From positions 28,261-92,260 of the forward strand of contig CAWKMY010000003.1 of NCBI GenBank assembly GCA_963851055.1: 64,000 nucleotides of DNA, written 5' to 3'. The translations under genes were made by a program, and so were the position numbers. The notes under the pieces are model-generated. The model saw nothing but the letters and a program-made list of their open reading frames with translations, searched no databases and was not told the DNA's origin. Position 1 is the first letter of the stretch. Each line of letters begins with the position of its first letter. Positions 1,669 through 50,580 of this stretch are shown in pieces. Origin of the DNA: an uncultured bacterium. Lineage in GTDB: Bacteria; Patescibacteriota; Minisyncoccia; Phycocordibacterales; PALSA-1337.

Positions 1669-2904
1669 ATGAAAAAGAAAAACAAGAAAAAGTCTGACGG
1701 AAAATTCATCGCTTATGATCATCTGGATAAGATCGGCGAGACTGCCGTCTACTACGGCTTCCATCCGACCAAGAGTCCGACCATAGACAAGAGCGACCTC
1801 GAAGCAGCCAAAGGCATAATGGAGGGAGATTTCGTGGATGATGAGATGGGTAAGCGTGGCCGTCTGCCATTGCATGCCGAAGAGAAGATATCTCTGATCC
1901 GGACTTATCATGAAGCGGGATGGCACAATGAATCACAACCGATCATGCTATATTTCAAAGATCCATATCGCGGATCATTGAAGAAGAGCGGCTATCATCG
2001 TTACGCCGACCTGGAGATACTCGGGGCTTCCGGTCCTATAGCCGAAGCTACACTCATCCAAGCCGCCAGAGCGATGTTAGCCGAAGAAGGTTACGCCGAG
2101 ACAGCCGTCGAGATCAATTCCCTCGGTGATCGCGATTCCATAGCTCGTTTTGCCAGAGAATTAACGGCGTATTATCGCAAGAATATAAATGAGATGACTC
2201 CGGAGGCTCGACAGCTTTTCAAGAGAGATATCTTCGACTTGCTGTCATCGCACGACGAATCGGTGAGAGAATTGAACGGCAAAGCGCCGCGCTCGATGGA
2301 CTTTCTGACCGAGACTAGCCGACGGCACTTGGAAGAGGTCCTGGAATATTGCGAAACTTTAAATATCCCTTACACCATCAATAACAGTCTGATAGGCAAC
2401 CGCAAATACTGCAGCGAGACCATCTTTGCCGTGGTGGACACCGGCGCCGGTCGGAAAGACCAGCGAATATTGGCCATAGGCGTGCGCTACAACGGCCTAG
2501 CTCGCAGGCTGGGCATGAAGCGCGACATTCAGGGCCTCGGCATGTCTCTCCTCATCAAAGGCAACGGCCCAAATCTCCGCAAACCTATTTCCAAGATGAA
2601 GCGTCCGATCGCCTCGTTCATGCAACTAGGAATGGAGTCGAAACTTGTCTCTCTGGACGTCATCGAACGCCTCCGTCAAGTCAAGATACCTTTGTATCTC
2701 TCTCTGGCCAAAGACCGCCTCGGTGCTCAAGTCTCCGCCAATGAAAAGCACCATACTCCTTACTCTATCGTCATGGGCAAGAAGGAGGCTGTTGAGAAGA
2801 CGGCCATCGTGCGTCGCACCGATACTCATGCCCAGGATATAGTCCCTCTCGACCAGTTGGCTAAATATATGAAGAAAGCGGAGACGGATTGGTGGGAGAA
2901 GTAG
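1669..2904 (+). CDS. Class II aaRS HisRS/HisZ-like protein with degenerate catalytic motifs
   Basis: Has a HisRS-like core (GYHRYADLEILGASGPIAEATLI; GVRYNGLARRLG resembling GGRYDGL) and a HisRS-type C-terminal anticodon-binding domain (SIVMGKKEAVEKTAIVRRTDTHAQDIVPLDQL). The expected RPE.T and R.ERPQ.GR.REF.Q motifs are not conserved. Start moved to ATG 1669, because the track start at 1552 overlaps lepB. Confidence 0.6.
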   Translation: MKKKNKKKSDGKFIAYDHLDKIGETAVYYGFHPTKSPTIDKSDLEAAKGIMEGDFVDDEMGKRGRLPLHAEEKISLIRTYHEAGWHNESQPIMLYFKDPYRGSLKKSGYHRYADLEILGASGPIAEATLIQAARAMLAEEGYAETAVEINSLGDRDSIARFARELTAYYRKNINEMTPEARQLFKRDIFDLLSSHDESVRELNGKAPRSMDFLTETSRRHLEEVLEYCETLNIPYTINNSLIGNRKYCSETIFAVVDTGAGRKDQRILAIGVRYNGLARRLGMKRDIQGLGMSLLIKGNGPNLRKPISKMKRPIASFMQLGMESKLVSLDVIERLRQVKIPLYLSLAKDRLGAQVSANEKHHTPYSIVMGKKEAVEKTAIVRRTDTHAQDIVPLDQLAKYMKKAETDWWEK

Positions 2905-2945
2905 TATTTGCACCTATAGCGAACCTGTGTTATCCTAGTCGAACA

Positions 2946-3194
2946 ATGATAAACGTAGAAATCACCCGCAACACAGGCGAGAATGCCATCAGCATGCTTC
3001 GCCGCTTCTCCAGGAAAGTCCAGTCTTCCGGCGTCATCGGCCGCAAGCGTTCTATCCGCTATTCAGGCCGCACCCAGTCTCCATACAAGGTAAAGCAAAA
3101 AGCCATGAAAGCTATCAAGCGCAGGTCTGATCTGGCAGAACTCGTCAAGCAAGGCAAGGCTCCGGTCAAACCGGAACGCGGTAGCCGCAAGTAA
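2946..3194 (+). CDS. rpsU: 30S ribosomal protein bS21
   Basis: An 82-aa basic protein, MINVEITRNTGENAISMLRRFSRKVQSSGVIGRKRSIRY...KQKAMKAIKRR, typical of S21. Internal ATG at 2946 chosen. Confidence 0.8.
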   Translation: MINVEITRNTGENAISMLRRFSRKVQSSGVIGRKRSIRYSGRTQSPYKVKQKAMKAIKRRSDLAELVKQGKAPVKPERGSRK

Positions 3195-3206
3195 GGACAC
3201 TGATCG

Positions 3207-3590
3207 ATGTTCAGAAACTTCAGGATAATTAATGAGACACGTGGCGCTTTGCCACGTTTTTCATTTGAGGAGATGAAAGACACTGTTCTCGGCAAGCGTT
3301 ACGACCTGACTCTGATCGTCACCGATTCAAAGCGTATCAAGAAGCTTAATACCATATATCGTGGCAAAGAAAATCCAACGGATATTCTAAGTTTTCCAAT
3401 ATCTGATAACGAAGGCGAGATATACATGTGTCCGGCCGAGGCCAAGAAAGAGGCGAGGAAGTTCAACCGATCTTACGATAATTTCTTCGCATACCTTTTC
3501 ATACACGGTTGTACACATTTGAAAGGATACGACCATGGGGGTATAATGGATAGCGTAGAAGCTAAAATACGAAGCAAATTCGGGATTTAA
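3207..3590 (+). CDS. ybeY: rRNA maturation endoribonuclease YbeY
   Basis: Zinc-binding H-x3-H-x5-H motif HGCTHLKGYDH near the C-terminus. The 127-aa size is typical. Confidence 0.85.
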   Translation: MFRNFRIINETRGALPRFSFEEMKDTVLGKRYDLTLIVTDSKRIKKLNTIYRGKENPTDILSFPISDNEGEIYMCPAEAKKEARKFNRSYDNFFAYLFIHGCTHLKGYDHGGIMDSVEAKIRSKFGI

Positions 3591-3644
3591 GAGATAAGAA
3601 TCAACCTTCTCTACTCTTATCTCATATCTCATAATTCCTATCTC

Positions 3645-4826
3645 ATGTCTCGAAACATCATCACCGGAATAGACATCGGCACATATCATGTCAAAGTCGT
3701 TATTGCAGACGCCAAAGAAAAGAATGAGAAGGGTTTACCCAAAGTCATCAGCGCCGGCATGGCAGACTCTCACGGATTGCGACACGGCTATGTGACAAAT
3801 GTAGAAGACGTGGCCCAAAGCATCCGCAGAGCTATTTCTATAGCCGAGGAGAAAGCCGGGGTCAAAGTCAAGAAAGCATTCGTGGGAGTCGGTGGCATCG
3901 GGCTTTCCGGTATAGCCGTCACTAGCTCCATCATGACTTCGCGTGCCGACGCGGAGATCACTTCCGTGGATCTCGCCAAGCTTCACGAGCAGTGCGAGAA
4001 AGACATTCCCCGCTCGGGTATAGCCAACCGCCGGATCATTTACAGCATCCCTCTCCAATACACTATCGACGGAATAGCGTCCTTGGGCAATCCGGAGGGT
4101 CTTTCCGGCAACAAGATCGAGCTTTCCACTCTATTTATAACTTGTCTGGACCACCACGTCGCCAACCTGATTCAGGCAGTGAATGAAGCGGGCGTTCAGG
4201 TGGAAGACGTCATGGCTGCTCCCGTAGTGGCCGGTTTCGTCACACTTTCCAAATCTCAAAAAATAGCCGGTTGCGTCTTGGCCAATATCGGCGCCGAGAC
4301 GGTCTCCATCGCCGTTTTTGAAAATAATATACCGACTTCATTGGAAGTCTTCCCTATCGGTTCTACCGACATAACCAACGATATCGCTCTCGGCCTCAAG
4401 GTGCCGTTGGAAGAGGCCGAGCAGATAAAGATCGGTGCTATCACAGGCTCATCTTATCCGCGCAAGAAGCTCGAGGAAATAATATCCGCCAGAGTTTCCG
4501 ATATATTCGATCTCATCGAAGCTCATTTGAAAAAGATCGGCAGAAATGGTCTATTGCCAGCCGGTATCGTCATCACCGGCGGAGGCTCTGGCATGCACTC
4601 GCTAGAGGATATGGCTCGGCTGGCCCTACGTTTGCCGTCGCGTATAGGTACGATCAATGATAATGGCAATAAAACCTCTTTCAAAGACGGCACTTGGGCA
4701 GTGGCTTACGGTCTATGTATTTGGGGTCTCCATACCGACGAAGGAACCGAAATAGACGGCTCCAGTAAGGTATGGAAGAGCGCTTGGAAAGCAGCTGTAC
4801 GATGGGTTAGGCAATTTTTGCCATAA
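3645..4826 (+). CDS. ftsA: Cell division protein FtsA
   Basis: Actin/ASKHA phosphate-1 motif ITGIDIGTYHVKVVIA and VITGGGSGM. Lies immediately upstream of the ftsZ neighbourhood. Confidence 0.85.
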   Translation: MSRNIITGIDIGTYHVKVVIADAKEKNEKGLPKVISAGMADSHGLRHGYVTNVEDVAQSIRRAISIAEEKAGVKVKKAFVGVGGIGLSGIAVTSSIMTSRADAEITSVDLAKLHEQCEKDIPRSGIANRRIIYSIPLQYTIDGIASLGNPEGLSGNKIELSTLFITCLDHHVANLIQAVNEAGVQVEDVMAAPVVAGFVTLSKSQKIAGCVLANIGAETVSIAVFENNIPTSLEVFPIGSTDITNDIALGLKVPLEEAEQIKIGAITGSSYPRKKLEEIISARVSDIFDLIEAHLKKIGRNGLLPAGIVITGGGSGMHSLEDMARLALRLPSRIGTINDNGNKTSFKDGTWAVAYGLCIWGLHTDEGTEIDGSSKVWKSAWKAAVRWVRQFLP

Positions 4827-4838
4827 TATAATCGGGAC

Positions 4839-5393
4839 ATGGTATTACCTGGACATTTGGCGGCAGGATATCTGGCAACGCGCGCTCTGCTGGCGATTTT
4901 TCATCCTGGATTCAGCTCAACGGAAATAGATGCACTTCTCATCATTGGAACACTGGCAGGAGAATTGCCGGATATAGATCTAGCCAAATTATATTTTGAT
5001 CATAAGCTCAAGCGGCCAAATCGTACCAACGATCATCGTGTCTACATAACTCACGCGCCACTCTTCTGGTTGATCATAAGCATTACCGTGGCTTTAGTCG
5101 GATTTCTAGTCAGCTCTATTTTCGTAGAATGGATAGGTTGGCTCATCTGGGCTGGCTCATGGACGCACCTCGCCATCGATTCTATAGAATATGGAGTAAT
5201 GTGGGCGTGGCCATTCTCAAAAAAACTTTTTGCTTTAAAAAAAGAAGTGCCTGTTGAAACTATAGATGCCAGACCCGGCTCGCCAAAATATCATTTCAAG
5301 TATATAAAAGAGGTATATCTCAAAACTGTCTCATTCTGGGCGGAGATCATCATTACACTGGCCGCGTTGTGGCTTCTTTTAACGGCGCTTTAA
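4839..5393 (+). CDS. Membrane-bound metal-dependent hydrolase-like protein (YdjM/DUF457-like)
   Basis: 184 aa with several TM segments. The N-terminal MVLPGHLAAGYLATRALL and the conserved H/D residues (WTHLAIDS) resemble the YdjM family. Assignment is from memory of the family pattern only. Confidence 0.4.
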   Translation: MVLPGHLAAGYLATRALLAIFHPGFSSTEIDALLIIGTLAGELPDIDLAKLYFDHKLKRPNRTNDHRVYITHAPLFWLIISITVALVGFLVSSIFVEWIGWLIWAGSWTHLAIDSIEYGVMWAWPFSKKLFALKKEVPVETIDARPGSPKYHFKYIKEVYLKTVSFWAEIIITLAALWLLLTAL

Positions 5394-5455: not shown

Positions 5456-6673
5456 ATGCCTCACATAACTCCTGATATCGAGACGTTTGCCCGCATCAAA
5501 GTCCTAGGCGTAGGTGGTTCAGGGCGTAATGCCGTTAACCACATGATCAATGCCAAGGTTAAAGGGGTTGATTTTATCGTCGTCAATACAGATGCCCAAG
5601 ATCTCCATGGATCACTTGCAAAGAAAAAAATACATATAGGCAAGAATATAACTCGCGGGCTTGGTACTGGTATGAACCCTGATCTCGGCCGCCGCGCAGC
5701 CGAAGAAACCCGCGATGAGATTCAGGAAGCTATCAAGGGTGCAGACATGGTCTTCGTCACTTGCGGTGAAGGCGGAGGTACTGGTTCGGGCGCGTCACCT
5801 ATGGTCGCTCGCGTAGCCAAGGAGCTCGGATGTCTCACTGTTGCCGTCGTCACCAAGCCTTTCTTCTTCGAAGGCCGCCAGCGTTCGCGCATTGCTGATA
5901 CCGCTCTGGAAGAACTTCGCAAAGAAGTCGACGCCATCATCGTCATACCTAACGATCGCCTTCTCTCATCTGTCAGCAAAGACACTACCGTCAAGAATGC
6001 ATTTGCCATGTGCGATGAGATATTGCGCCACGCTGTCGAAGGTATATCCGACCTCATCACTACTCCAGGACTCATCAACATAGACTTTGCCGACATCCGC
6101 ACAGTCATGGAGAATGCCGGATCAGCACTCATGGGCATAGGCTCAGCTACAGGCGAGAATCGCGCTATAGAGGCTGCCAAGGCCGCTATAAATAGCCCTC
6201 TTCTCGATGTTTCTATCACGGGAGCCAAGGGTGTACTCTTCTCCATTGCTGGTGGCGAGGACCTAACGATGTTCGAAATCCAAGATGCCGCCAAAGTCAT
6301 CACCGAATCTATCGACCCAGAAGCCAAGATAATCTTCGGTACAGTCCGCGACGACAAGCTCAAAAAGAACGAGGTCCGCGTCACTGTCATTGCTACAGGA
6401 TTTCCGGAACATGTAATGAATGCCAGGGCGGCGGGCTCTATGGTTTCCGCATCAGCGACAGAGGCTTCATCTAGCCCATTCGCCAAGGCTTCTGAGAAGC
6501 CGGTAAAGGAGCGCGGCAAGATATTCAATACTTTGACTGATAGGAATAAAGAGATACCTGTCGTAGAAAAAACTTCACCAGCCACAGCAGCCAAGAAAGA
6601 GGCTCCGAAAGTTGATGACGATGATGATTGGGGTGCAGTGCCGGCGTTCTTGCGAAGATCGAGGTTGAAGTAG
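5456..6673 (+). CDS. ftsZ: Cell division GTPase FtsZ
   Basis: IKVLGVGGSGRNAVNHM and the tubulin signature GGGTGSGASP, plus NTDAQDL and a C-terminal DDDDDWGAVPAFLRR peptide. ATG 5456 chosen, because the track start at 5369 overlaps the previous gene. Confidence 0.95.
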   Translation: MPHITPDIETFARIKVLGVGGSGRNAVNHMINAKVKGVDFIVVNTDAQDLHGSLAKKKIHIGKNITRGLGTGMNPDLGRRAAEETRDEIQEAIKGADMVFVTCGEGGGTGSGASPMVARVAKELGCLTVAVVTKPFFFEGRQRSRIADTALEELRKEVDAIIVIPNDRLLSSVSKDTTVKNAFAMCDEILRHAVEGISDLITTPGLINIDFADIRTVMENAGSALMGIGSATGENRAIEAAKAAINSPLLDVSITGAKGVLFSIAGGEDLTMFEIQDAAKVITESIDPEAKIIFGTVRDDKLKKNEVRVTVIATGFPEHVMNARAAGSMVSASATEASSSPFAKASEKPVKERGKIFNTLTDRNKEIPVVEKTSPATAAKKEAPKVDDDDDWGAVPAFLRRSRLK

Positions 6674-39026: not shown

Positions 39027-39094
39027 AGGGTCTAAGTATAGCATTTATATGCCATGTCTGATTGGTAAGATCGTACGGGAGGAAGTTGGAACCA

Positions 39095-39607
39095 TTATGA
39101 ACCGGAAACTAGTCGGCGGTTCTTTATAAGATCATATAAGTATAAGATGGAGAGGGTTATGAGCACCCCCAAAAGTCCAAAGGTCAGATCGCCCATCGTG
39201 TCACTGTTGCTTGGTTGAGCGAGAAGATTCGGGTAGATCAAATTTATATGGAGTATATCCATTCTAAAGTGATCATAAGAGAATTCTAAAATCTCCCAGA
39301 CGACGCCGATGAGAGCGGCGATCCCCATGATCACTAATGCTTGCATCCATTTCTTATGAGAGAAAGCTGCCGCCTCCGGATAATAATGTCGAATCAAGAG
39401 GAGAGATACTGCGATGATTATTCCGCTTAAAAAATGAACAAGAGCGTCATAGCCGAAAAAACCGGCATTGCATCCCAGATACGTATAACATTTATCATTA
39501 CTCATGAGATGGAACCAGAAATCTCCGCTAAGTAAAGCAAAAATGTATATTGGCAAAAGGACCATGAGAACAATCCCTAGACGAGATCTGGTTTTAGAAC
39601 TTGGCAT
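39095..39607 (-). CDS. Membrane protein, YjdF/DUF2238-like
   Basis: 170 aa and multi-TM. The pattern YDALVHFLSG ... VWEILEFSYD ... SDTMGDLTFGLLG resembles my recollection of the YjdF family pattern. Confidence 0.45.
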   Translation of the reverse strand: MPSSKTRSRLGIVLMVLLPIYIFALLSGDFWFHLMSNDKCYTYLGCNAGFFGYDALVHFLSGIIIAVSLLLIRHYYPEAAAFSHKKWMQALVIMGIAALIGVVWEILEFSYDHFRMDILHINLIYPNLLAQPSNSDTMGDLTFGLLGVLITLSILYLYDLIKNRRLVSGS

Positions 39608-39685
39608 TGATGTTGTTTTTATTATATCTTAACTTATGCCAAATTAATTTGCTGGCCGGATGGGACGCTGTTGGAACCTATTTAG

Positions 39686-40297
39686 CTAGGATTTCTTCCC
39701 TATAATCTGAAGCCACGTGGTTTTACCTACCAATTCGCTATTTTCGTATACAATGCTCAATCCAAGATCGAAAAAGTGTTTCTTTAATTCATCCAGAGTG
39801 AAATAGCTGAAAAACCTCTCGTATTGATACCCGTAATCGTTTTCTTTTAGCACTTCTTCATCCTTTCCATCTGGTCTCGTACCTTTTACCGCTACATACA
39901 GATATCCGCCGGATATAAGGCATAATAATAGTCCTTTTAAAACATCAGAGATCTCTTTTTTAGGAATATGTAGAAGTGAGGCTTGTGCAAAAATACCGTC
40001 AAATTTGATACCAAGATTACTAACATCTTTCATATCCATTACATGAAATTGGGCACCGGGTACTTCTCTCTTAGCAATCTCAATCAATTTTTCTGAAAAA
40101 TCTATGCCGGTAACATTTAACCCTTTACCCGTAAGATATTTTGACTTAACTCCAGCTCCACAGCCAACATCAAGAATTTTCTTTTTATCTTTCAGAAATG
40201 AAATAAAAGTATTAGTTCCATCAACCCACCAATCGTCTCCCTTATGGTCATTGAACCAATCGGTTGCAATTCTATTGTAAGTATCTTTAAGATTCAT
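39686..40297 (-). CDS. Class I SAM-dependent methyltransferase
   Basis: Motif I ILDVGCGAGVKSKYL, post-I GIDFSEKLI and motif II FDGIFAQASLLHI. Confidence 0.8.
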   Translation of the reverse strand: MNLKDTYNRIATDWFNDHKGDDWWVDGTNTFISFLKDKKKILDVGCGAGVKSKYLTGKGLNVTGIDFSEKLIEIAKREVPGAQFHVMDMKDVSNLGIKFDGIFAQASLLHIPKKEISDVLKGLLLCLISGGYLYVAVKGTRPDGKDEEVLKENDYGYQYERFFSYFTLDELKKHFFDLGLSIVYENSELVGKTTWLQIIGKKS

Positions 40298-40317
40298 ATA
40301 ATTAAAAGATTAATAAT

Positions 40318-41007
40318 CTATTCAATAATGGGTAATTGATTAGAATTTGAAGAAGATGGTACTGGAGATTCTTGTTGAAGAACTTGTGGTTCAGTCAGTG
40401 GTAGTGGTTGCGCGGCCTTAAATATATTTTCTAATTCTGAATCTAAAGTAATATACATGTCAGACAATTTCGCTAGTTTTGTTTGAATCTTCTGTGAGCT
40501 ATCGAGAGCTGTAAGATAGACATTACCACCAAGATTCTGAACTGCCTCGAATAGTGGGATGTAATCCCTGTCATTTACTAGAAAGACAATATTAGACGCA
40601 CGTCCTCCAGCAAGAAGTAGCAGTACATCACATATTAATTTACTATCAAGCCCTTTCTCTGAGCGTGTAAAATAATCACGATATTCCGGCGAAAGTTTTT
40701 GCAGCTCGTCATCTGGGACAGCGTCAAGATTTTCTCCACATTGTTTGATCTGCCAATGATTTTTTGCGCCAGGCTCAGTTTCATTCGGTGTCTCCAACAT
40801 TGTTTGCAATCTTTTATCATTTTGCTTGAAATAATAAACTACACGAATTGTAGTACCTACCCATAAAGACCATTTGCGCATTAGCGCTTCTGTTAGGCGT
40901 TGTATATCCAATTTCCTGCTATTAAGAGTCGGTTTTGTCCTCCATATCTCAAAAATACTGGAAAATAAGTGAGAGCCATCTATTATAAAATAACCTTTAT
41001 TTTCCAT
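40318..41007 (-). CDS. NYN/LabA-like (PIN-related) ribonuclease-domain protein
   Basis: Conserved acidic positions appear in NYN order: FIIDGSHLF, EKGLDSKLICDVLLLA and VFLVNDRDYIPLFEAVQNLGGNVYL. The C-terminal tail is low-complexity. Confidence 0.65.
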   Translation of the reverse strand: MENKGYFIIDGSHLFSSIFEIWRTKPTLNSRKLDIQRLTEALMRKWSLWVGTTIRVVYYFKQNDKRLQTMLETPNETEPGAKNHWQIKQCGENLDAVPDDELQKLSPEYRDYFTRSEKGLDSKLICDVLLLLAGGRASNIVFLVNDRDYIPLFEAVQNLGGNVYLTALDSSQKIQTKLAKLSDMYITLDSELENIFKAAQPLPLTEPQVLQQESPVPSSSNSNQLPIIE

Positions 41008-41010
41008 AAA

Positions 41011-41307
41011 TTATTTAATGCCACATAATGGCCTATACTTTGTCCTTATAAGTCTTTCAAGTAACAGCCTGAAGTTCTGATCGTTGCTTATGTAAATAAA
41101 TAAGCCGGTATCATTACATCCATTACTATACCAGCAGGCCTTTCTTTCGTGGTTAATTAGTCGTGAATTTATATCGTTTGTTTCTCCAACGTCCACAACC
41201 TGATTTCTCCCATTTAAGATAATATACACACAGCCAAAATCTCGGTTAAATTTCCGAGTGTGATAGTACGGTCCTGTAAATGTATATCCCTCAACTTGAA
41301 TCGCCAT
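41011..41307 (-). CDS. Small GIY-YIG-like nuclease-domain protein
   Basis: 98 aa. GCVYIIL ... VVDVGETNDINSRLINH fits the pattern GIY-(~10)-YIG-x-T...R...H. Stop-to-start spacing to the NYN gene is 3 nt. Confidence 0.45.
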   Translation of the reverse strand: MAIQVEGYTFTGPYYHTRKFNRDFGCVYIILNGRNQVVDVGETNDINSRLINHERKACWYSNGCNDTGLFIYISNDQNFRLLLERLIRTKYRPLCGIK

Positions 41308-41322
41308 AATTTTGGAAATTTT

Positions 41323-42105
41323 CTAATTTTTATTGAATCGTTTGAAGTATGTATCAATCTCATCCCGGAGTTCAATACCAACCCTCTCAAAGCAATCAAG
41401 TAAGTCTTTGTATGTTCCCTTACCTCCAAGAAAATCCCAGAATTCATCTGCGACTTTGAGCTCATTTTCCAGATCAAGCATGCCACGCATTGTCCAGCGA
41501 GAATATTGTTCCGGCTCGTAAGGATTATAAGGAATAGCTATAAAAGTATGCACCTCTGCTTCCGGCTTGTTCGCCAAAATCACAGCCACCCACTCAAGCA
41601 GTGTGCGCTTGAATTCTTTAAAACCACCAGCATTTGGCTTTGCCGTTTTAATATCAAATAGATAAAAGGCACCGTCTTTTGATTCAAACATCAAATCTAC
41701 TTTTGTCGGCTTAACAGTTACCATCTTCCCTGTCTGGCAAACTTTTCTTATTCTCTCAATCTCTTTATTCTTATCGGGGGTACTCGTAGCAGTTGTAAGT
41801 CCATCTATAATTTTCTGAATCTCGCCTTGTGCCGCGGTACTGATCAATTCACCAGCTGTAGCTTGAGCAGTAGCCATTTTGAAATTCTTTTGTGCTAGAG
41901 CTAGGCCAACCGGCTCGAAAATACTGCTACCAAAATTGGTATTGAGTGAATGGATAAAAGAATACAACGCCAGTCTATCCTTTCCCAATAATCTGGTATG
42001 GAAAGGCATTGATGCCGGCTCCGGATTATAGTTCTGAAACTTATTGCGTAAACTAGCTTTTAATGTTTCCTCAACGGCTTTGATTTGTTCTTTAGATAAA
42101 GTCAT
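41323..42105 (-). CDS. Type II restriction endonuclease, TdeIII-like
   Basis: MPFHTRLLGKDRLALYSFIHSLNTNFGSSIFEPV matches my recollection of the RE_TdeIII family N-terminus. A PD-(D/E)xK-like VDLMFES...YLFDIKTAKPN is present. It starts 3 nt after the methyltransferase stop. Confidence 0.55.
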   Translation of the reverse strand: MTLSKEQIKAVEETLKASLRNKFQNYNPEPASMPFHTRLLGKDRLALYSFIHSLNTNFGSSIFEPVGLALAQKNFKMATAQATAGELISTAAQGEIQKIIDGLTTATSTPDKNKEIERIRKVCQTGKMVTVKPTKVDLMFESKDGAFYLFDIKTAKPNAGGFKEFKRTLLEWVAVILANKPEAEVHTFIAIPYNPYEPEQYSRWTMRGMLDLENELKVADEFWDFLGGKGTYKDLLDCFERVGIELRDEIDTYFKRFNKN

Positions 42106-42107
42106 GA

Positions 42108-43682
42108 TTATTTGAGTTTAAAATGGAAAATAATTTCTGAATAAGGGGTGCGATCACGCTCGGTTCGATTCAATACCGGCCTTTTGAATTGATTGACTAT
42201 TTTCATGCCGGTTTTTTCAGCAATCTGTGGATATAGGTTGTATTTATCATTCGCAACCAAGAATATATCCGGATTGTCAGTAAAGTATTTCTTGCAATTA
42301 TTGAGAACATCTGCAATCCCTTGAACATAAGATTGCTTAGCTTCAAAACCTTGACCTTTATAAAGTGGCCCTATTTCAAGATCGTCTTTACGCTTAAAAC
42401 CGAGCAGATCATAAGCATAAGCGTGTTGCTCGTGATAGTCAATTTGACCAACGTATGGTGGTGAGCAAAATATGCCGGAAATTTTTTGTTTCTTCAATAA
42501 TTTTGCAAACTCGGGATTATGCTTTTCTACCACCTCAAATATGTTTACTTTTCTAGAATCACCAGCAATAGCTGAATAATGAACAGGCTTACGCAACCGA
42601 TCGAACTCCTTCACTCGGCTCAATGTATCAAAAGCATAACGATTGAGCATTGCTTTAATCGAAAAAAGTGGTTTGCAGATTTTTTTATGTTTGAAACAGT
42701 AATAAGTCGTCAGTTGAGGTTCCTTGAGCGTAGCGAGATCGCTATGTGTCGTAGCTCTACATGATCGGATTGTTCGACTAAGAATAAGAGCCAGCATTTT
42801 TCTTGCTTTCAAATCTTTCTCAGACTTTACCGCCCTGAAAACGTGATCAATCTCTCTGCGAACACTATCCATAAACCATTTATCTAGAAATGATTTGGAT
42901 ATATCCTGCTTAATTTTCACAGAATATTTCTTAAGAAGATTTTGGTAAACTGGCAGGAATTCTTTTTCTTTTTTCACTGCAAATACATCTTCATTGACAT
43001 TATTTTGGTTCATCTCATATTTGTAGTCAGATCCAGGAAAATACTTATTGTTGAATTTAGCAAGTTCTACGAGTAATTCTTCCTCAAACTCATGAATCTT
43101 ATTATCGTGTTCAAAAGTCTGAAGCGCATCTATCATCTTTTTTATCGCCTTTTGTAGATACTCGTGATCATAATGCGTAGCTTTACAGCTTGCTATCATG
43201 CAGTTAAATTCTGATACATCTATGCCTACAGAATGAATTCCACTCTCAATAGATTGTATTATTGTTGTGCCGGATCCAAGAAATGGATCTAGAATAATGT
43301 CACCTTGCTTGAAATATACCTGTCTCTTGAAATCGTCGATATGACTATCAACGAAATACTCAACCAATTGAGGAATAAATTTGCCCTTGTATGGATGAAG
43401 ACGGTGTACATGCTTGGTCGTATCTTTTTCTCTCAGATTATCAAATGAAAGTGCCCAGTTTAGATCATCGCCTAACTTTTTTTTCCAATCAGCTTCACGC
43501 TTAGTGTTAGAAGATTTGTAATACCCCTTTAAATCATTGGTGTTGACCATCGTTGAACCATTTTCTCCATGCTTTTTAACCTTGCCATATTGAACAAGGT
43601 AGGAGATATTTGCGGGTGTAACCTCTTTTTCGAGATAATCAGTTGCCCACTTTGATGCTTCTGGAATAGTTATTAATGGCAT
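42108..43682 (-). CDS. DNA methyltransferase, alpha-class order (motif I ... TRD ... motif IV), SPPY type (N4-C or N6-A)
   Basis: HRLHPYKGKFIPQL (motif X) and ILDPFLGSGTT (motif I) lie about 260 aa before FCSPPY (motif IV). Confidence 0.85.
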   Translation of the reverse strand: MPLITIPEASKWATDYLEKEVTPANISYLVQYGKVKKHGENGSTMVNTNDLKGYYKSSNTKREADWKKKLGDDLNWALSFDNLREKDTTKHVHRLHPYKGKFIPQLVEYFVDSHIDDFKRQVYFKQGDIILDPFLGSGTTIIQSIESGIHSVGIDVSEFNCMIASCKATHYDHEYLQKAIKKMIDALQTFEHDNKIHEFEEELLVELAKFNNKYFPGSDYKYEMNQNNVNEDVFAVKKEKEFLPVYQNLLKKYSVKIKQDISKSFLDKWFMDSVRREIDHVFRAVKSEKDLKARKMLALILSRTIRSCRATTHSDLATLKEPQLTTYYCFKHKKICKPLFSIKAMLNRYAFDTLSRVKEFDRLRKPVHYSAIAGDSRKVNIFEVVEKHNPEFAKLLKKQKISGIFCSPPYVGQIDYHEQHAYAYDLLGFKRKDDLEIGPLYKGQGFEAKQSYVQGIADVLNNCKKYFTDNPDIFLVANDKYNLYPQIAEKTGMKIVNQFKRPVLNRTERDRTPYSEIIFHFKLK

Positions 43683-43720: not shown

Positions 43721-44029
43721 TCGCCTCCCGTTCTACCGCCTTTGGAGGGTAGGTGGTGCGCGAGACGCTTGGCAGATAAGGGCGCGTTGACCTCCGCCCG
43801 TCACTACGGATGTTGTTCGCGCCTAGCTCATGTTGGCATGGCGAGAGCGGCCGACTGTCTGTGTGTTACAGACTGTCGGGTAAGCGGAGCCATGCGAACA
43901 GGAGCGTAAGGCGCGCCACAATCGTTATTAGGGCGGAGGTGTACGCGCCCGTACTCTCTCCTGCCACGCGCTCTCGTGCAAGCGGCCGCGCACGACCTGC
44001 CCGGAAAAGGCGGTTGGAGCGGGAGGCAC
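43721..44029. other. GC-rich ~310-bp element with complementary termini (structured RNA or MITE-like element)
   Basis: Sharp GC-rich block between AT-rich genes. gcctcccg (43723-43730) pairs with cgggaggc (44020-44027), and accgcc (43735-43740) pairs with ggcggt (44009-14). Nested internal helices include ccgactgtctg-N7-cagactgtcgg. Only Arg/Ala-rich junk ORFs occur here. Confidence 0.5.
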
Positions 44030-44085: not shown

Positions 44086-45441
44086 ATGAATAACCAAATC
44101 TCAACAGCTATCCAACAGATCGGTCATATCGTAGACGCATGGATTCCTATGAAAATTAAATACGATAAGACGCCGGGAATTTCGATTGCCATTTCTCATG
44201 GCGGTAAAATTATTTACGCGAGAGGTTTTGGTTTTGCAGATGTTGCACATAAGCAAAAAGCGTCTGCCGAAACTTTGTATCATATTGCCTCGCATTCAAA
44301 AATGTTCACGGCGGTTGCTATTATGAAGCTTGTCGAGGAAGGCAAGCTCAGGCTCGATGACCATGTTTCTGACTATATTGACTGGTTTAAGGCAAAGGCT
44401 AAGCATAGCGATTCATCTCATATCACGCTTCGCCAATTACTGTCACATACGGCAGGTGTCTTTCGTGACGGTGATACGCCACATTGGGAAAACGGCAAGT
44501 TTCCAAAAGATTTGAAGAAATCTTTTTCTTCCAAGTCATTAGTCATCGAAAATCTGACTACATTTAAGTATACCAATTACGGCTATTCACTTTTGGGATT
44601 GGTGATTGAAAAGGCCTCTGGAATGTCGTATGAAGAATATGTGACAAAAAAGATTCTTAAGCCACTCGGTATGAAAAATACGTATGTAGATTACAAGAAA
44701 GAAATAAAACACATAGCTACCGGGTATGGTTCTGAAACACCGGATCAAAAGAGAATAGTTTTTAGCCATTACGCCACAAATGCTTATGCACCAGCCACAG
44801 GCTTTGTTTCAAACGCAACTGATCTGATAAAGTTCATATCATCTCTTTCGCTTAATCATGACTCACCACATGTCATCAACAGAGAATCTGTTAAAGAGAT
44901 GGGTAGACCCCATGCCAAGACGGAAGATGGCGATGAATATGGATTAGGTTTGGATATAAGCTATCTTGATGGCCGAAAAATCATAGGACACGGAGGCGGT
45001 TTCAATGGTTTCATCACGCGTACCGCTTTAGACACAAAAAATGATATTGGCGTTGTCGTCCTCACAAATACTTTGGGTTCAAATGCAAGCCAGATAACAG
45101 ACGGGTTGTTGGATTCTATTGATCGGATCATAAATAAATCTAAAGACTACTCCAGCCACTCAAAAATATCTTATGCGAAATATGAAGGTATATATCGAAG
45201 CGTTTGGGGAGACAGTGTGATATCTAGAGCTAAAGATATCCTGATAAGCTATGGTCCTAAGACTAATAATCCCTTAAAGGGCGCTCGTAGATTTATTCCT
45301 ACTTCGTCACCACACACTTTCGTAATGAAATCCAAATACGTTTACGGTTCGTACGATGAAGAGGCGGTATTCACAAATTTTAAGAACGGAAAAGCCCAAA
45401 AATTACTTGAGGCTTCTATGCCACTGAAAAGAATACAGTAA
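44086..45441 (+). CDS. Serine hydrolase of the class C beta-lactamase / PBP4* / esterase family
   Basis: The S-x-x-K nucleophile is ASHSKMFTAVA, the Y-x-N motif is YTNYGYSLLG, and the third box is GHGGGFNGF. Confidence 0.8.
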   Translation: MNNQISTAIQQIGHIVDAWIPMKIKYDKTPGISIAISHGGKIIYARGFGFADVAHKQKASAETLYHIASHSKMFTAVAIMKLVEEGKLRLDDHVSDYIDWFKAKAKHSDSSHITLRQLLSHTAGVFRDGDTPHWENGKFPKDLKKSFSSKSLVIENLTTFKYTNYGYSLLGLVIEKASGMSYEEYVTKKILKPLGMKNTYVDYKKEIKHIATGYGSETPDQKRIVFSHYATNAYAPATGFVSNATDLIKFISSLSLNHDSPHVINRESVKEMGRPHAKTEDGDEYGLGLDISYLDGRKIIGHGGGFNGFITRTALDTKNDIGVVVLTNTLGSNASQITDGLLDSIDRIINKSKDYSSHSKISYAKYEGIYRSVWGDSVISRAKDILISYGPKTNNPLKGARRFIPTSSPHTFVMKSKYVYGSYDEEAVFTNFKNGKAQKLLEASMPLKRIQ

Positions 45442-45452
45442 AGAGGAGCCAC

Positions 45453-46190
45453 TTACTTCTTCTTTATCTTGACTTTGCCTACTGCCGGCAACAATCCCGA
45501 AGCAAATTGGGCAAGCGGATTGGTGTTCATGAAATCCATCATATTCAGAGTTGCCTTTTGAATATCTTCCGGACTTCCTTTCATAGATTTGGTAATACCT
45601 CTACAAGATTTCAAATAGTTTGTATAGGGAATCGACATCGAACCAATTCATAGCATCGAGAAAATTCGATCCGTCGAAATACCTTATAGCTTTGCCGATT
45701 TCCATGTCGGTGATTTCATCATAGCCGTTAGTGATAGTCACCCCTTTCTTTTTGAGGTTGTTCAGATAATTCGGGATATGCTTGTCAATGTAATTCAGGA
45801 TATACCAGCCCCAGCGTTCAAACTCAATCTTCAATATTTTTCCATCGTTCAATAGGTAGATCTTCTTCGAAATCAGAGCGAGACCTTGTCCGAGATCTTG
45901 GCGAACCGCGGGTCTGAAAGCGTCTTCAAATAGCTCAAAAGAACAGCGAATAATTGCTGTGGCAGGATATCTCTCTGTTTGCCGACAAACGCACCTTCAA
46001 AATCTTTAATATCCCCTTTCTTGGATCTTTCCTCCACCTTTAAATTTTCCGGTCTTGTAATATTTATCTTCCGCCTGCACTGTTTTGATATTCTTCAAGT
46101 CCTCGTCCATCACTCTCACGGTGGCATCAAGGATTCTTGTTTGCCTAGAGTGACGTCAAAATCCAAGAGCAAGCTGATCAAATATTTATT
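45453..46190 (-). pseudogene. Series of short minus-strand ORF fragments in three frames (decayed gene)
   Basis: Protein-like segments switch frame at least three times: ...MDEDLKNIKTVQAEDKYYKTGKF / KGDIKDFEGAFVGKQRDILPQQLF / FELFEDAFRPAVRQDLGQGLALISKKIYLLNDGKILKIEFERWGWYILNYIDKH...DVDSLYKLFEIL* / SIPYTNYLKSCRGITKSMKGSPEDIQ.... The long segment has no proper start. Confidence 0.35.
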
Positions 46191-46538
46191 TATCAAGATC
46201 ATCGCCTACACTCACCGCTTCTTTTTGTTCCATACGGAATTTCTGGACAAAATAGGTGAATTTTTTCTGCAGGTCTATCCTTCTTGATCTGCTTCTCGCC
46301 ACTACTGGTCTACAATGCTCCCTGCATCGGTAATGTTTATCAGACAACTCCAATTCATGCCCAGATTCGCAAATACAAACTGCCTTTCTTGAAAAATGGC
46401 ATAGGCTCAATTCCTATTTCTTTGATAGTTTGTTTTCTCCTTCATTTTAATGAAAAATCCACAGACAAAATCCTTACTTTAAGCCATTCTCAAAATCTCA
46501 AAAGCATTTCCGCGAAACTCACCCTTTACGATACACCC

Positions 46539-46765: not shown

Positions 46766-47528
46766 ATGGGCTACAACAAATTTATCAAATCCGGTAACAC
46801 ATTAGAAATATACTCATATGAACGATCTATCGAAATTCGTGAAGGACAACGCCGAGGTCATAAAGGCAGAAATGGTCTGTCGGGTGTGGCTTCTGGTGGA
46901 AGCAATTCATTATCACCCCAAGAATTCGAAGGAAAGCGCAAAGATAACGCGTCCCGCGCATCTATGGCTTTTAGACGGCTTATCCTATCTAACCTTGGAG
47001 GATCTGAATTACCTATACTCATTACTTGTACATACAAAGAGAACCAAACTGACATCAAGCAAGGATACTCGGATTTCACAGCTTTTGTCCAAGCTCTACG
47101 ATATAAATACGGACCACTTTTCAGGTACATCGCAGTACCAGAATTTCAAGCGCCGTGGAGCCGTTCATTTCCACGCTCTGTTCTGGGGGCTACCCGAAAC
47201 CACGGTTGAAACAGAGAGATATACCAGATTGGTTGCGGGGATGTGGGGACACGGATTCGTCTACGTCAAAATGACCGACGGCAACGAAAAGCTATCATCA
47301 TATCTTGCAAAATATATGGCTAAATCATTCATAGACTACAGATTGAAAAATCAGAAGGCATATACATGCTCTCGTAACCTTCTTCGCCCGCAGATCGTCG
47401 GCGGTATATCTTCATACAGCATTGATTGCTATTTGCAAGAATGCGGGGTGAAAAAACCGGAGGTTGATAAGTCTTACGATACGCATTGGTTAGGGCGAGC
47501 ACGACACAGGATTTACCAACTAGAATAA
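46766..47528 (+). pseudogene. Rolling-circle (HUH) replication initiator, split by a frameshift near 47147-47150
   Basis: Frame A gives ...PILITCTYKENQ (motif 1-like) ...FRYIAVPEFQ. The next frame continues KRRGAVHFHALFWG (HUH) ...SSYLAKYMAKS (Y-x-x-K-Y, two-tyrosine type). Neither ORF alone contains all the motifs. Confidence 0.65.
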
Positions 47529-47547: not shown

Positions 47548-47946
47548 ATGATTTTAGTTAAATCAAAAATTGGTCCAAGTAAAATCGAAGGTATCGGTTT
47601 ATTTGCAGATGAGCCTATTAGAAAAGGGACTAAAGTGTGGGGATTCGAGCCAAAACTGGATTTGGTACTCTCGAAGGATGAGGTTGAGAAATTATCGCCA
47701 GCTGCGCGAGAACAATTTTATAGATATGCTTATCTCGACAAAGTTCGACAAAAATATTTGCTGTGCGGTGATGATGCAAGATTTTTTAACCACTCGGATA
47801 GACCAAACTGTGATGAGACTACTGATAATGATTCAACCTTTGCGCTAAAAGATATTGACGTCGGCGAAGAATTGACAATCAATTACGGCGAATTTTACGG
47901 AAATATGAACGAGCATCCAGAGATCGAAAAAACAGCGGTCTTATAG
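47548..47946 (+). CDS. SET-domain protein (putative lysine methyltransferase)
   Basis: GIGLFADEPIRKGTKV, RFFNHSDRPNC (the NHS/CxPN box) and GEELTINYG (the ELxxxY box). 132 aa. Confidence 0.8.
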   Translation: MILVKSKIGPSKIEGIGLFADEPIRKGTKVWGFEPKLDLVLSKDEVEKLSPAAREQFYRYAYLDKVRQKYLLCGDDARFFNHSDRPNCDETTDNDSTFALKDIDVGEELTINYGEFYGNMNEHPEIEKTAVL

Positions 47947-47988: not shown

Positions 47989-49497
47989 ATGAAATATATA
48001 CTTTACTGCCGAAAATCCACTGATACTGAAGACCGCCAAGTGCTTTCTCTTGATTCACAAGAAAAGGAGCTTTTGGCTATTGCGGAGAAGCTGAATCTGA
48101 AGATCGTAAAGGTATTCAAGGAAAGCCGCACTGCCAAGGAAGCAGGTCGTCCCATTTTCAATGAAGTGATTCAAATGATCAACGCCGGCAAAGCTGATGC
48201 TATTCTCTGCTGGAAACTAGACCGCCTAGCTCGCAACTTCTTGGACGGTGGACTCATCATGGATATGCTCCAGAAAGGCATCATTAAGGAAATACGTACC
48301 TACGAAGCCGTTCATCTGCCTAACGAGACATCATTCATCCTCGCCATGCAATTTGGTATGGCTAATCAGTACAGCCGTGACCTAAGCGTCAATGTGAAGC
48401 GTGGCAATCGTGAGAAATTATCCCGTGGCGAATGGCCGAATCATGCTCCGTTCGGATACCTGAATGACAAACCCACAAAGACGATCACTATTGATCCGAT
48501 TCGTTCAAAGTATGTCGTCCGTGCATTTCAGTTATACGCCACTGGCCGCTACGGCTTCAACGAAATCGCCAAAATCCTCTATGACGAAGGTTTGCGAACT
48601 TCATCCGGCAAAAAAGTATATCGTGGACACATTCATCGCTTCATCAGCCAGCCATTTTACTGTGGTCTCATGCTCCGTGAAGGTAAATACTATCCGGGCA
48701 AACACCAACCGCTCATTTCCAAGCAATTATTCGACGATGCTCAAAATGTTTTACATAACCGAAATCGCCCAAGGCTACAAAAGAAATTCTTCTCTCTCCG
48801 GGGATTCTTGAAATGCGAGAACTGTGGTTGTGCCTATACTGCCTCAACCAAGAAAGGCCACGATTACTATTACTGCACCAATGGAAAAGGCCACTGCGAA
48901 GCTCATTTGAAATACATGCGAGAAGCTACGATGTATGAATTGATCGCTCCAGTGCTTGATCAGCTTCGATATGATGAAGAAATCATTGACATCATGTTCA
49001 ATGCCGCCAAGGAACGCCAGCTCCATGACAACAGCTATGTCGAATCAATCGTAACTTCATGCCAGAGCCGTCTAGAATCGCTCAAGGCGAAAGAAGTACG
49101 CCTACTCGATACATTTCTCGATGGGCAAATTTCAAAGGAAATCTATGATGCTAAAGTCCTTGAAATACACAACGAAAAGATCTGCGCCGAAAAACAGATG
49201 AGCGAAGCTAAAACCAAGAATGACATTTTAACTTTGGAACCGACTAGAGAAGCATTTCTACTTGGAAACAGAGCCATGAAAAATTTTGTGGACGGAAATG
49301 ACAACGAAAAGCGTATCATAGCTTCAAAGTTACTTTGGAACCTTTCTATGAAGGACGGAAATATCGCTCAAGTAAGCTACAGAAGTCCGTATGACATCAT
49401 GGCAAAAGCACCCAAAACAGGTGATATTAAAACTTTGCTGCGGGGGAAGGAGTCGGACCTTCATACCAGGATTCAAAGTCCTGTGTCCTACCATTAG
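47989..49497 (+). CDS. Large serine recombinase (integrase)
   Basis: Resolvase N-terminus YCRKSTDTEDRQVLSLDSQ and WKLDRLARN, a recombinase domain, a zinc ribbon CENCGCAYTAS...YYYCTNGKGHCE and a coiled coil. The last 20 codons are antisense to tRNA-Gln. Confidence 0.9.
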   Translation: MKYILYCRKSTDTEDRQVLSLDSQEKELLAIAEKLNLKIVKVFKESRTAKEAGRPIFNEVIQMINAGKADAILCWKLDRLARNFLDGGLIMDMLQKGIIKEIRTYEAVHLPNETSFILAMQFGMANQYSRDLSVNVKRGNREKLSRGEWPNHAPFGYLNDKPTKTITIDPIRSKYVVRAFQLYATGRYGFNEIAKILYDEGLRTSSGKKVYRGHIHRFISQPFYCGLMLREGKYYPGKHQPLISKQLFDDAQNVLHNRNRPRLQKKFFSLRGFLKCENCGCAYTASTKKGHDYYYCTNGKGHCEAHLKYMREATMYELIAPVLDQLRYDEEIIDIMFNAAKERQLHDNSYVESIVTSCQSRLESLKAKEVRLLDTFLDGQISKEIYDAKVLEIHNEKICAEKQMSEAKTKNDILTLEPTREAFLLGNRAMKNFVDGNDNEKRIIASKLLWNLSMKDGNIAQVSYRSPYDIMAKAPKTGDIKTLLRGKESDLHTRIQSPVSYH

Positions 49498-49508
49498 ACG
49501 ACCCCGCA
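49438..49508 (-). tRNA. tRNA-Gln (anticodon UUG) with atypical T loop
   Basis: Acceptor TGCGGGG/CCCCGCA (U1-A72), D arm GTCT-AATGGTA-GGAC, anticodon arm CAGGA-CTTTGAA-TCCTG, T arm GAAGG-TCCGACT-CCTTC. The loop is TCC rather than the usual TTC. CCA is not encoded. Confidence 0.8.
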
Positions 49509-49527: not shown

Positions 49528-50580
49528 CTACTGACAAATCCTAATTACGGCAAGCTCCAGTGGCAATGCCTCTATGCGTGCCCTGCCAACGCCGTCCGCG
49601 GCTTCAAGAAGTGCCGCTAGTGTAACCGGAGTCAAAGCCTTCTTCCCTGCCTGTGTTTCTATGAATACCCAATCATCAGGAGAGACACGCTCTTTGACTG
49701 ATGCTTGAGACGATTGAGAATGCTGTATCAAAAGAATAAAACGGGCCTTTTCTAACACTAGAGTGACGAAAGTACTCATTGAAATGCCAGATTTTTCTGC
49801 TTCACCAAGAACTTTCAAGGCCGCATCAGCATTCTTGGCGATCAATCCTTCAATGAAACTATTAACCAGACCGGCTCGAGGGGCACCTGTAATGGATTCG
49901 ACGATGTCGCGATCGATTACCATATTCGTTCCACCTTTAGCGCCCTTAATGTGACCACCAGCAGGAGTGGCGGCAATAACTTTTTCTAACATGCCAAGCG
50001 CGTCGCGAAATGATCCGTCGCCCAGCAATGCAATCAAATCTGCGGCGCCAGCGTCCAGAGAATAGCCCTCTTCCTTGGCAATCTTAACCACTTGCTTGCC
50101 GACAATGTCACGCGGCGGTTTGCGGAATGCAAAAGTCTGGCAACGGGAAATGATAGTCTCCGGCACTTTATCGAGTTCGGTTGTGGCCAATATAAAAATG
50201 ACGTGTTTCGGTGGCTCCTCAAGAGTTTTCAGAAGCGCATTCCAAGCGTCCTTGGAAAGCATGTGAACCTCGTCAATAATATAAACTTTGTATTTGCTGG
50301 AAAATGGTAGAACTGCCACATGTTCGCGGAGTTCACGAATATCGTCTATGCCGCGATTAGAAGCGGCATCTATTTCATTTACATCTTCATCGGCGGTTTT
50401 AAGCTCATGCGCCATGATGCGAGCAACTGTAGTCTTGCCTGTACCGCGAGAGCCAGAAAATAGATAGGCATGGGCTACACGGTCGTTAGATATGGCATCT
50501 TTGAGGGCTTCGACAATATGATCCTGGCCCATGACTTCAGACCATTTGGCTGGGCGGTATGTTCGGTAGAGGACGGGCAT
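49528..50580 (-). CDS. dnaX: DNA polymerase III gamma/tau subunit (short form)
   Basis: Walker A GSRGTGKTT, IIDEVHML and SRCQTFAF. 350 aa. Confidence 0.9.
   Translation of the reverse strand: MPVLYRTYRPAKWSEVMGQDHIVEALKDAISNDRVAHAYLFSGSRGTGKTTVARIMAHELKTADEDVNEIDAASNRGIDDIRELREHVAVLPFSSKYKVYIIDEVHMLSKDAWNALLKTLEEPPKHVIFILATTELDKVPETIISRCQTFAFRKPPRDIVGKQVVKIAKEEGYSLDAGAADLIALLGDGSFRDALGMLEKVIAATPAGGHIKGAKGGTNMVIDRDIVESITGAPRAGLVNSFIEGLIAKNADAALKVLGEAEKSGISMSTFVTLVLEKARFILLIQHSQSSQASVKERVSPDDWVFIETQAGKKALTPVTLAALLEAADGVGRARIEALPLELAVIRICQ

Follow-up and report, generated by a model that had tools for sequence, protein, structure and literature searches.

The 64-kb stretch of DNA analysed here in full (the window; contig CAWKMY010000003.1 of an uncultured member of the Patescibacteriota) carries an island of low GC (guanine plus cytosine) content beside a tRNA-Gln(UUG) gene. 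A large serine recombinase gene, int, lies at the right end of this island and runs into the tRNA gene in convergent transcription (Table 1). GC drops from 0.47-0.50 in the flanks to 0.33-0.43 between ~39.2 and ~49.4 kb. The right flank consists of the host genes dnaX, Dus, D-Ala-D-Ala carboxypeptidase and SerRS, and the serine recombinase is the only recombinase detected with Pfam in the island. We identify the segment 39648-49440, with high confidence, as an integrative plasmid-like element of 9.8 kb, located right at the 3' terminus of the tRNA-Gln(UUG) gene of its host. This host, a Patescibacteria bacterium, probably belongs to the Saccharibacteria.

The protein belongs to the large serine recombinases. 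It contains a Resolvase domain (PF00239, E=2.4e-19, residues 4-149), a Recombinase domain (PF07508, E=2.7e-14) and a zinc ribbon (PF13408, Zn_ribbon_recom, E=6e-8; all Pfam), and its catalytic motif YCRKSTDTEDRQVLSLDSQ holds Ser10, which is nearly invariant in an alignment of 44 sequences. The AlphaFold2 model has long helices at residues 330-377 and 383-410, a coiled coil that interrupts the zinc ribbon, and the best solved relative is the SPbeta integrase (9dxh, E=3e-8). On the other strand, the tRNA-Gln gene (49438-49508) reaches 62.2 bits with the Rfam tRNA covariance model at a gathering score of 29, with all four stems of the cloverleaf intact and no non-canonical pairs flagged. Both genes share 60 nt, equal to 19 sense codons plus the stop, whose TAG is found across from the D loop. 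Codons 1-483 are element DNA, codon 484 (CTG) begins exactly at the tRNA 3' end (49438), and codons 485-502 together with the stop are antisense host tRNA. A run-on of 20 codons has a chance probability of roughly (61/64)^20 = 0.4 and is not improbable alone.

To define the junctions, we used loci of relatives that were fetched and compared (labelled L001-L019). The integrase of L001 is 93% identical to that of the window and has the same dnaX-Dus-SerRS flank. Both loci are near-identical up to ...TTTGCTGCGGG / ...ATTAAAACTTTGCTGCGGG and then diverge abruptly inside the tRNA: identity ends 7 nt into the gene, and the tRNA-Gln of L001 has a canonical T loop and different stems. At the left end, the block shared with L001 is 39648-39682 only (TTTGCTGGCCGGATGGGACGCTGTTGGAAC; 97% over 35 nt), comprising one copy of the core and the P' arm. 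The same P' arm motif marks the left element ends in L002, L013, L014 and L016 and is contiguous with int in L007. At the right end, the P arm and the second core copy are followed by the B' arm, which is identical in two element-free loci (L004 and L006) and differs from L001 from 49445 on. The repeated cores are TTTGCTG in the window, AACTTTGCTG in L001, TGCTGC in L002 and TGTGC in L013, and the core repeat spans 5-10 bp at five of the six loci but reaches 20 bp at the sixth, L014. Aligned in register on the P' arm, the cores of three elements overlap only in TGCTG, which corresponds to C71-A72-G73 of the tRNA and two trailer nucleotides, and the locus comparison confines the crossover to this pentamer. 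Three tRNA nucleotides at most were exchanged, and these are the same in both partners. A general search for direct repeats yielded chance repeats only.

When the two ends of the element were joined in silico, right to left, its attachment site, attP, was restored inside int, together with an open reading frame (ORF) of 500 aa. The reconstructed free-form integrase ends ...LLAGWDAVGTYLARISSL / TLLAGWDAVGTYLARISSL, a tail of the type LLAGWDAVGT..., which is unrelated to the tail of the integrated form (502 aa). The predicted attP junction sequence is GGTGATATTAAAACTTTGCTGGCCGGATGGGACGCTGTTGGAAC; the predicted attB junction consists of the tRNA 3' end ...CTCCTTCCCCCGCAGCAAA, followed by non-element DNA. 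Tails of the free type (WDxVGT or LDxVRT) occur on the tRNA-free contigs L007, L008-L011 and L012, and on all of these the P arm, core and P' arm are contiguous. L007, which encodes Rep, the integrase and a BglII-type restriction-modification system, closes as a 7,962-bp circle via a 15-nt terminal overlap, and an ORF stays in frame across the join. Because free-type proteins sit on contigs with contiguous P, core and P' and no tRNA, the comparison indicates that attP is located inside int and that the integrated protein is a hybrid. Integration by attP x attB recombination is supported indirectly, as both integrated and contiguous-attP arrangements are found among the relatives. In the AlphaFold2 model, confidence is high up to about residue 483 and the predicted local distance difference test (pLDDT) score is below 50 over residues 485-502, so that the swapped C-terminal segment is placed outside the folded domains.

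An earlier note on this DNA had pointed to the 60-nt overlap with its 20 antisense codons and to the TCC in the T loop, and both are confirmed by ARAGORN, Rfam and the ORF coordinates. Its suggestion that integration had created a hybrid integrase C-terminus is borne out by the core at both ends and by the match of the reconstructed free tail to tRNA-free homologues. The attP inside int, for which it had named phage Mx8 as a precedent, agrees with the contiguous P, core and P' within int on the tRNA-free contigs.

The same note had also proposed that the element carries its own tRNA 3' half, so that integration replaced the T arm and the acceptor strand and the C at position 55 is derived from the element. 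The T arm is indeed the part of the tRNA nearest to the element, and in L014, located at a tRNA-Ser, attP and attB share 20 nt into the T stem, which makes a deeper crossover conceivable there. In the window, however, the shared core covers only C71-A72-G73 and the trailer, and identity with the near-identical L001 element ends 7 nt into the tRNA from its 3' end, as described above. Furthermore, the window and L001 have the same P' arm despite many differences between the T arms of their tRNAs. No displaced piece of the tRNA 3' end turned up in the window, where a 24-mer search with up to three mismatches matched the gene itself alone. Considering also the element-free relatives described below, a tRNA rebuilt from element DNA is hardly credible.

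The T arm of the window tRNA-Gln reads GAAGG-UCCGACU-CCUUC. Its loop, U54-C55-C56-G57-A58-C59-U60, has a C at position 55 (window 49456) and deviates from the canonical U54-U55-C56-R57-A58. Uridine at tRNA position 55 is nearly universal, and the other four of the five tRNA genes in the window have canonical loops (UUCGAAU, UUCGAUU or UUCAAGU). We scanned collections of genomes and metagenomes with the tRNA 3' half as query, leaving positions 55 and 59 free, and obtained three loci. Two of them, L004 (a Saccharibacteria metagenome-assembled genome (MAG), 4967-5040) and L006 (a JGI contig, 6069-6141), contain a tRNA-Gln with C55 and the same T arm as the window, and one D-loop base is the only difference in the tRNA. 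Both have ordinary genes and no recombinase on the 3' side of the tRNA, and dnaX on its 5' side as in the window. The third, L005 (a Saccharibacteria MAG), has the same tRNA-Gln with the canonical loop UUCGAUU. The tRNA as a whole shows 98.6% identity across genomes in which the adjacent dnaX proteins share only ~62%. Because the C55 tRNA is present in L004 and L006 without a recombinase and is this well conserved despite the divergence of dnaX, the comparison indicates that the C55 T loop is a conserved trait of the host lineage and unrelated to integration. The view of C55 as a mark of integration, and with it the rebuilt tRNA, fails on exactly these element-free relatives with a TCC tRNA. 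None of the three loci is syntenic on the left side, so none represents a true empty site for this organism.

Across the four assemblies, C55 and C59 are kept together in the tRNA-Gln(UUG) of three (window, L004 and L006), with UUCGAUU in the fourth (L005). The CCA end is encoded in the tRNA-Gln of L004 and L005, and not in that of the window and L006.

The C55 tRNA-Gln might also lack function or have a special role, for instance outside the ribosome, with a working tRNA-Gln elsewhere in the genome. The near-universal U55 speaks in favour of this idea, as does the single tRNA-Gln that is visible in the 64-kb window with ARAGORN and Rfam. Against it stand the near-identity of the tRNA across genomes with diverged dnaX proteins, the conserved dnaX-tRNA-Gln position of the gene, the covariance score of 62 bits with all stems intact and U1-A72 and G73 present, and the sister genome L005, which has the same gene with a canonical loop. 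We therefore regard a non-functional copy as distinctly unlikely and retain C55 as a host trait.

The arms of the att sites suggest how the tRNA may be recognised. In all six integrated elements (6/6), the 8-mer TTSGAAC(C) or a one-mismatch variant begins 11 nt (B') or 16 nt (P') beyond the reference triplet, and the P' arm of L014 equals the tRNA arm with an insertion of TGAAG between T stem and T loop. For the Listeria integrase, the zinc-ribbon-domain motif was assigned to positions 16-24 in attP and 11-19 in attB (Rutherford et al. 2013, PMC3783163). With the crossover set at CT (tRNA A72-G73), the arms described here fit this numbering. The integrase seems to use the acceptor and T arm of the tRNA as a putative B' half-site, and the P' arm would be a T-arm mimic with a 5-bp insertion. 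Relative to attB, attP would then have the putative zinc-ribbon-domain motif 5 bp farther from the crossover, in line with characterised serine integrases. Although the C55/C59 loop of the window makes for a poorer match to the 8-mer motif, an element is present at this site. No conservation is seen in the left half of attB, and this may be a reason for tandem insertions.

By position, roughly residues 475-482 are specified by the P arm, the last base of codon 482 and codons 483-484 by the core, and the final 16 residues of the native integrase by the P' arm. In the proposed mechanism, recombination between attP and attB would swap DNA within the core, overlapping only C71-A72-G73 and 2-4 trailer nucleotides, so that the tRNA would stay intact and host-derived. 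In the integrated form, the int ORF reads through the antisense tRNA to the TAG opposite the D loop.

The 18-residue tRNA-derived tail is most likely an unstructured by-product of this site geometry. It might instead be part of a regulatory device as proposed for Mx8, with the native tail serving integration or directionality and either the tRNA-derived tail or convergent transcription of the tRNA altering the activity or expression of the integrase once integrated. In support of such a switch, attP is kept in the int ORF across the family down to 36% identity, integration of Mx8 makes a new int 3' end and alters the properties of the integrase (PMC6070905), and the promoter-like site of the tRNA faces int. 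The conservation of the native tail (WDxVGT), however, is equally explained by a DNA constraint on the P' arm, while the integrated tails are free in sequence and length (2 to ~45 residues, depending on the tRNA) and the tail is predicted to be disordered. We consider a regulatory role of the tail swap unlikely and favour the by-product.

A protein search with the integrase yielded thousands of relatives, with source names pointing to Patescibacteria. Behind the conserved C-terminal stretch ...SPYDI(L/M)AKAPKNGDISTLL, three types of tail occur, which were counted among the 120 best homologues. In 72 of these, the tail contains D/E-S-N-P/Q, the translation of the antisense T loop GGTTCGAAT, and 34 of the 72 extend to ...SYH*, the antisense of the tRNA-Gln D loop. 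WDxVGT or LDxVRT tails were found in eight, and the remaining 40 have a very short tail or none. Counting these 40 as free forms was rejected: the one that was checked (P0053, L016) is integrated at a tRNA-Gln and ends early at a TAG in the T stem. Integrases are oriented head-on against tRNA-Gln(UUG) in L001, L016 and L019, tRNA-Gln(CUG) in L002, tRNA-Tyr in L013 and tRNA-Ser in L014. The geometry of int and tRNA was the same at all integrated loci fetched, including one with a 36%-identical integrase. Phage carriage of the family is not evident, because a search of IMG/VR with the family alignment gave two moderately related matches (43% and 36% identity) and otherwise distant serine recombinases.

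These data can be extended to a broader, still tentative scenario, to which we give somewhat less than an even chance. It describes a large, hitherto undescribed Patescibacteria-wide family of tRNA-specialised serine integrases that uses the acceptor/T arm as a half-site, with a T-arm-mimic attP whose 5-bp spacer allows moves among tRNA-Gln, tRNA-Tyr and tRNA-Ser. The tail would report the free or integrated state, and newcomers would insert ahead of older copies, leaving P' arrays and captured single genes behind. The copy in the window is an ordinary, partly decayed member of the integrase family, and the family is an interesting variant of serine-integrase biology.

Several points weigh against our interpretation. 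Neither an empty site nor an excised circle was recovered from the same organism, and an exact-match look-up of the window dnaX returned a 1.1-kb contig only. The crossover dinucleotide is confined only to TGCTG, and an apparent symmetry of attP (AACAG...CTGTT) would put the centre 1-2 nt off the best fit to the published arm numbering. A low pLDDT of the tail is expected anyway where tails differ among the aligned sequences. The element may be partly decayed and possibly no longer mobile, because a conserved 341-aa core gene of the family is a pseudogene in the window. Finally, an older insertion may have left behind the DNA to the left of 39648, and the reconstructed left arm of attB is therefore uncertain; a reading of this DNA as pristine host attB was rejected because of the second P'-like arm at 39076. 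Weighing all of this, we remain strongly confident in the explanation as a whole, with an integrated element, attP inside int, an intact host tRNA and a host-derived C55.

Table 1. Features of the element and its surroundings in the window.
Feature	Position	Strand	Basis and remarks
Second, outer P'-like arm CGGGAGGAAGTTGGAAC	39076-39092	+	15/17 matches to family consensus TGGGACGAAGTTGGAAC; GC starts falling about here
DUF2238-like membrane protein gene	39095-39607	-	Weak Pfam DUF2238 match; bracketed by both P' arms
Left core copy TTTGCTG (left junction)	39648-39654	+	Exact repeat of 49434-49440
P' arm GCCGGATGGGACGCTGTTGGAACC...	39655-39682	+	Conserved with L001; encodes native tail in free form, stop 39703-39705
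Cargo: S-adenosylmethionine (SAM) methyltransferase	39686-40297	-	Pfam
Cargo: NYN-domain protein	40318-41007	-	Pfam
Cargo: 98-aa ORF	Between NYN-domain and TdeIII genes, within 39686-43682	-	
Cargo: TdeIII restriction endonuclease	41323-42105	-	Pfam
Cargo: N4/N6 DNA methylase	42108-43682	-	Pfam
GC-rich structured non-coding block	43770-43966	+	Conserved in L001 (4428-4712) and L002 (7577-7770)
Cargo: beta-lactamase-family serine hydrolase	44086-45441	+	PF00144, E=5e-72; absent from L001 and L002
Pseudogene of conserved 341-aa core gene of the element family	45463-46410	-	tblastn with L001 and L002 proteins
Rolling-circle-type replication initiator (REP_ORF2-G2P)	46818-47528	+	Pfam, E=2e-9
Cargo between rep and int: SET-domain protein gene	47548-47946	+	PF00856, E=1e-16
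Large serine recombinase gene, integrated (hybrid) form	47989-49497	+	502 aa; Pfam domains; stop TAG 49495-49497
P arm of att site, inside int coding sequence (...PKTGDIKT codons)	49410-49433	+	Identical in L001
Right core copy TTTGCTG	49434-49440	+	49438-49440 are G73, A72 and C71 of the tRNA
B' arm	49441-49459	+	Antisense of tRNA positions 52-70 (acceptor 3' strand, T stem, T loop); host DNA
Host tRNA-Gln(UUG)	49438-49508	-	ARAGORN (49437-49508), Rfam tRNA model; T loop UCCGACU, U1-A72, G73, no encoded CCA
Promoter-like site upstream of tRNA-Gln	49538-49566	-	Consensus scan, 9/12 matches; weak

The cargo of the element includes a restriction-modification system, and the cargo block at 39686-43682 has a GC content of 0.33-0.42. 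The Rep gene precedes int in L001, L002, L007, L008, L013 and L016. The SET-domain gene (lysine methyltransferase-like) between rep and int is absent at that position in L001 and L002. The 341-aa gene is conserved beside rep in L001, L002 and L003; the copy in the window shows 47-48% identity to the L001 and L002 proteins, is split over two frames and contains several in-frame stops. The non-coding block has a GC content of ~0.54 inside the low-GC element and a long hairpin-like fold with 61 predicted pairs; compensatory changes occur at 13 of these, a count based on three distinct sequences only. No Rfam match was obtained for the block, as a permissive-threshold scan over 39-50 kb gave the tRNA alone. 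It is a candidate non-coding RNA or, alternatively, a candidate single-strand origin for the rolling-circle Rep. The cargo of the L002 element includes bAvd and a reverse transcriptase (RVT_1) at 2452-3900, resembling a diversity-generating retroelement.

At the left end, the outer P'-like arm at 39076 is probably a relic of an earlier integration, and the true outer left edge of the low-GC island is probably near 39.07 kb. The DUF2238-like gene between the two arms shares 38% identity (E=3e-40) with the gene immediately to the left of the L014 P' arm. Left element ends with one or two genes between two P'-type arms are seen in the window (39076-39682), L001 (364-1232), L013 (564-1507) and L012 (1515-3341), and also in the apparently free circular L007 (3756-4308). 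Such genes may reflect serial integrations beside the tRNA or a route for the capture of single genes. In L016/L017 (1-1173; 1123-1148), another large serine recombinase gene of a different kind (~600 aa) has its end within the P' arm of the Rep-integrase element next to it; a single tRNA-Gln therefore has two elements in tandem, and the integrase of the older one has again acquired an attP-like tail. Far from the element, tandem 12-nt (GGAGTAGGAGTA-type) and 48-nt repeats are present at 11879-12064 of the window, probably a repetitive coding region.

The locus belongs to a well-populated family of serine integrases that uses tRNA genes, and the anatomy of its att sites can be read from the sequence alone and fits the rule known from phage serine integrases. 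In this natural case, a serine integrase is directed to a conserved RNA gene and leaves that gene intact, and the attP/attB pairs are potentially usable as integration tools for Patescibacteria and Saccharibacteria. For annotation, the results imply that many "502-aa recombinases" in the databases have junction-derived tails that are foreign to the native protein. Apart from this, the conserved C55 tRNA-Gln is of minor interest to tRNA biology.

tRNA genes are classic landing sites of tyrosine integrases; the integrases of SSV1-type fuselloviruses target tRNA genes, and the Int of Mx8 is likewise a tyrosine recombinase. For serine integrases, a paper on the Islander class from 2014 stated that they were not known to target tRNA genes (PMC4383910). 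No description of tRNA-targeting serine integrases, of attP inside a serine integrase gene or of such elements in Patescibacteria was found in the literature searched, which is weak evidence of novelty.

The large serine integrases of phages and of integrative and conjugative elements (A118/LI, phiC31, Bxb1, SPbeta SprA) share with the window integrase the Resolvase, Recombinase and zinc-ribbon domains and the long coiled-coil insertion. They also share the 5-bp offset of the motif between P' and B' (PMC3783163), and the core identity of the window element appears similarly short, without a long direct repeat. In contrast to these, the window integrase targets a tRNA 3' end, its attP overlaps its own stop region, and it is carried in a Patescibacteria host by a small Rep-encoding plasmid-like element rather than a phage. 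Like the window element, Mx8 (intP/intX) has its attP within the int coding sequence and forms a recombinant gene with a new 3' end (PMC6070905), whereas only ~16-18 terminal residues outside the folded domains change in the window integrase. In SSV1-type fuselloviruses the att site is also inside int (PMC5861418); their recombinase is an archaeal tyrosine recombinase and int is split by integration, whereas the window int stays essentially whole. With the tRNA islands of tyrosine integrases (Islander class), the element shares the position on the 3' side of the tRNA, the tRNA-proximal int and a tRNA that is intact afterwards. In Islander-class elements, however, the displaced 3' part is made good by a tRNA fragment that the element brings along, whereas the window element, with a serine-type recombinase and a repeat of only the 7-bp core, is without such a fragment and exchanges at most three tRNA nucleotides.

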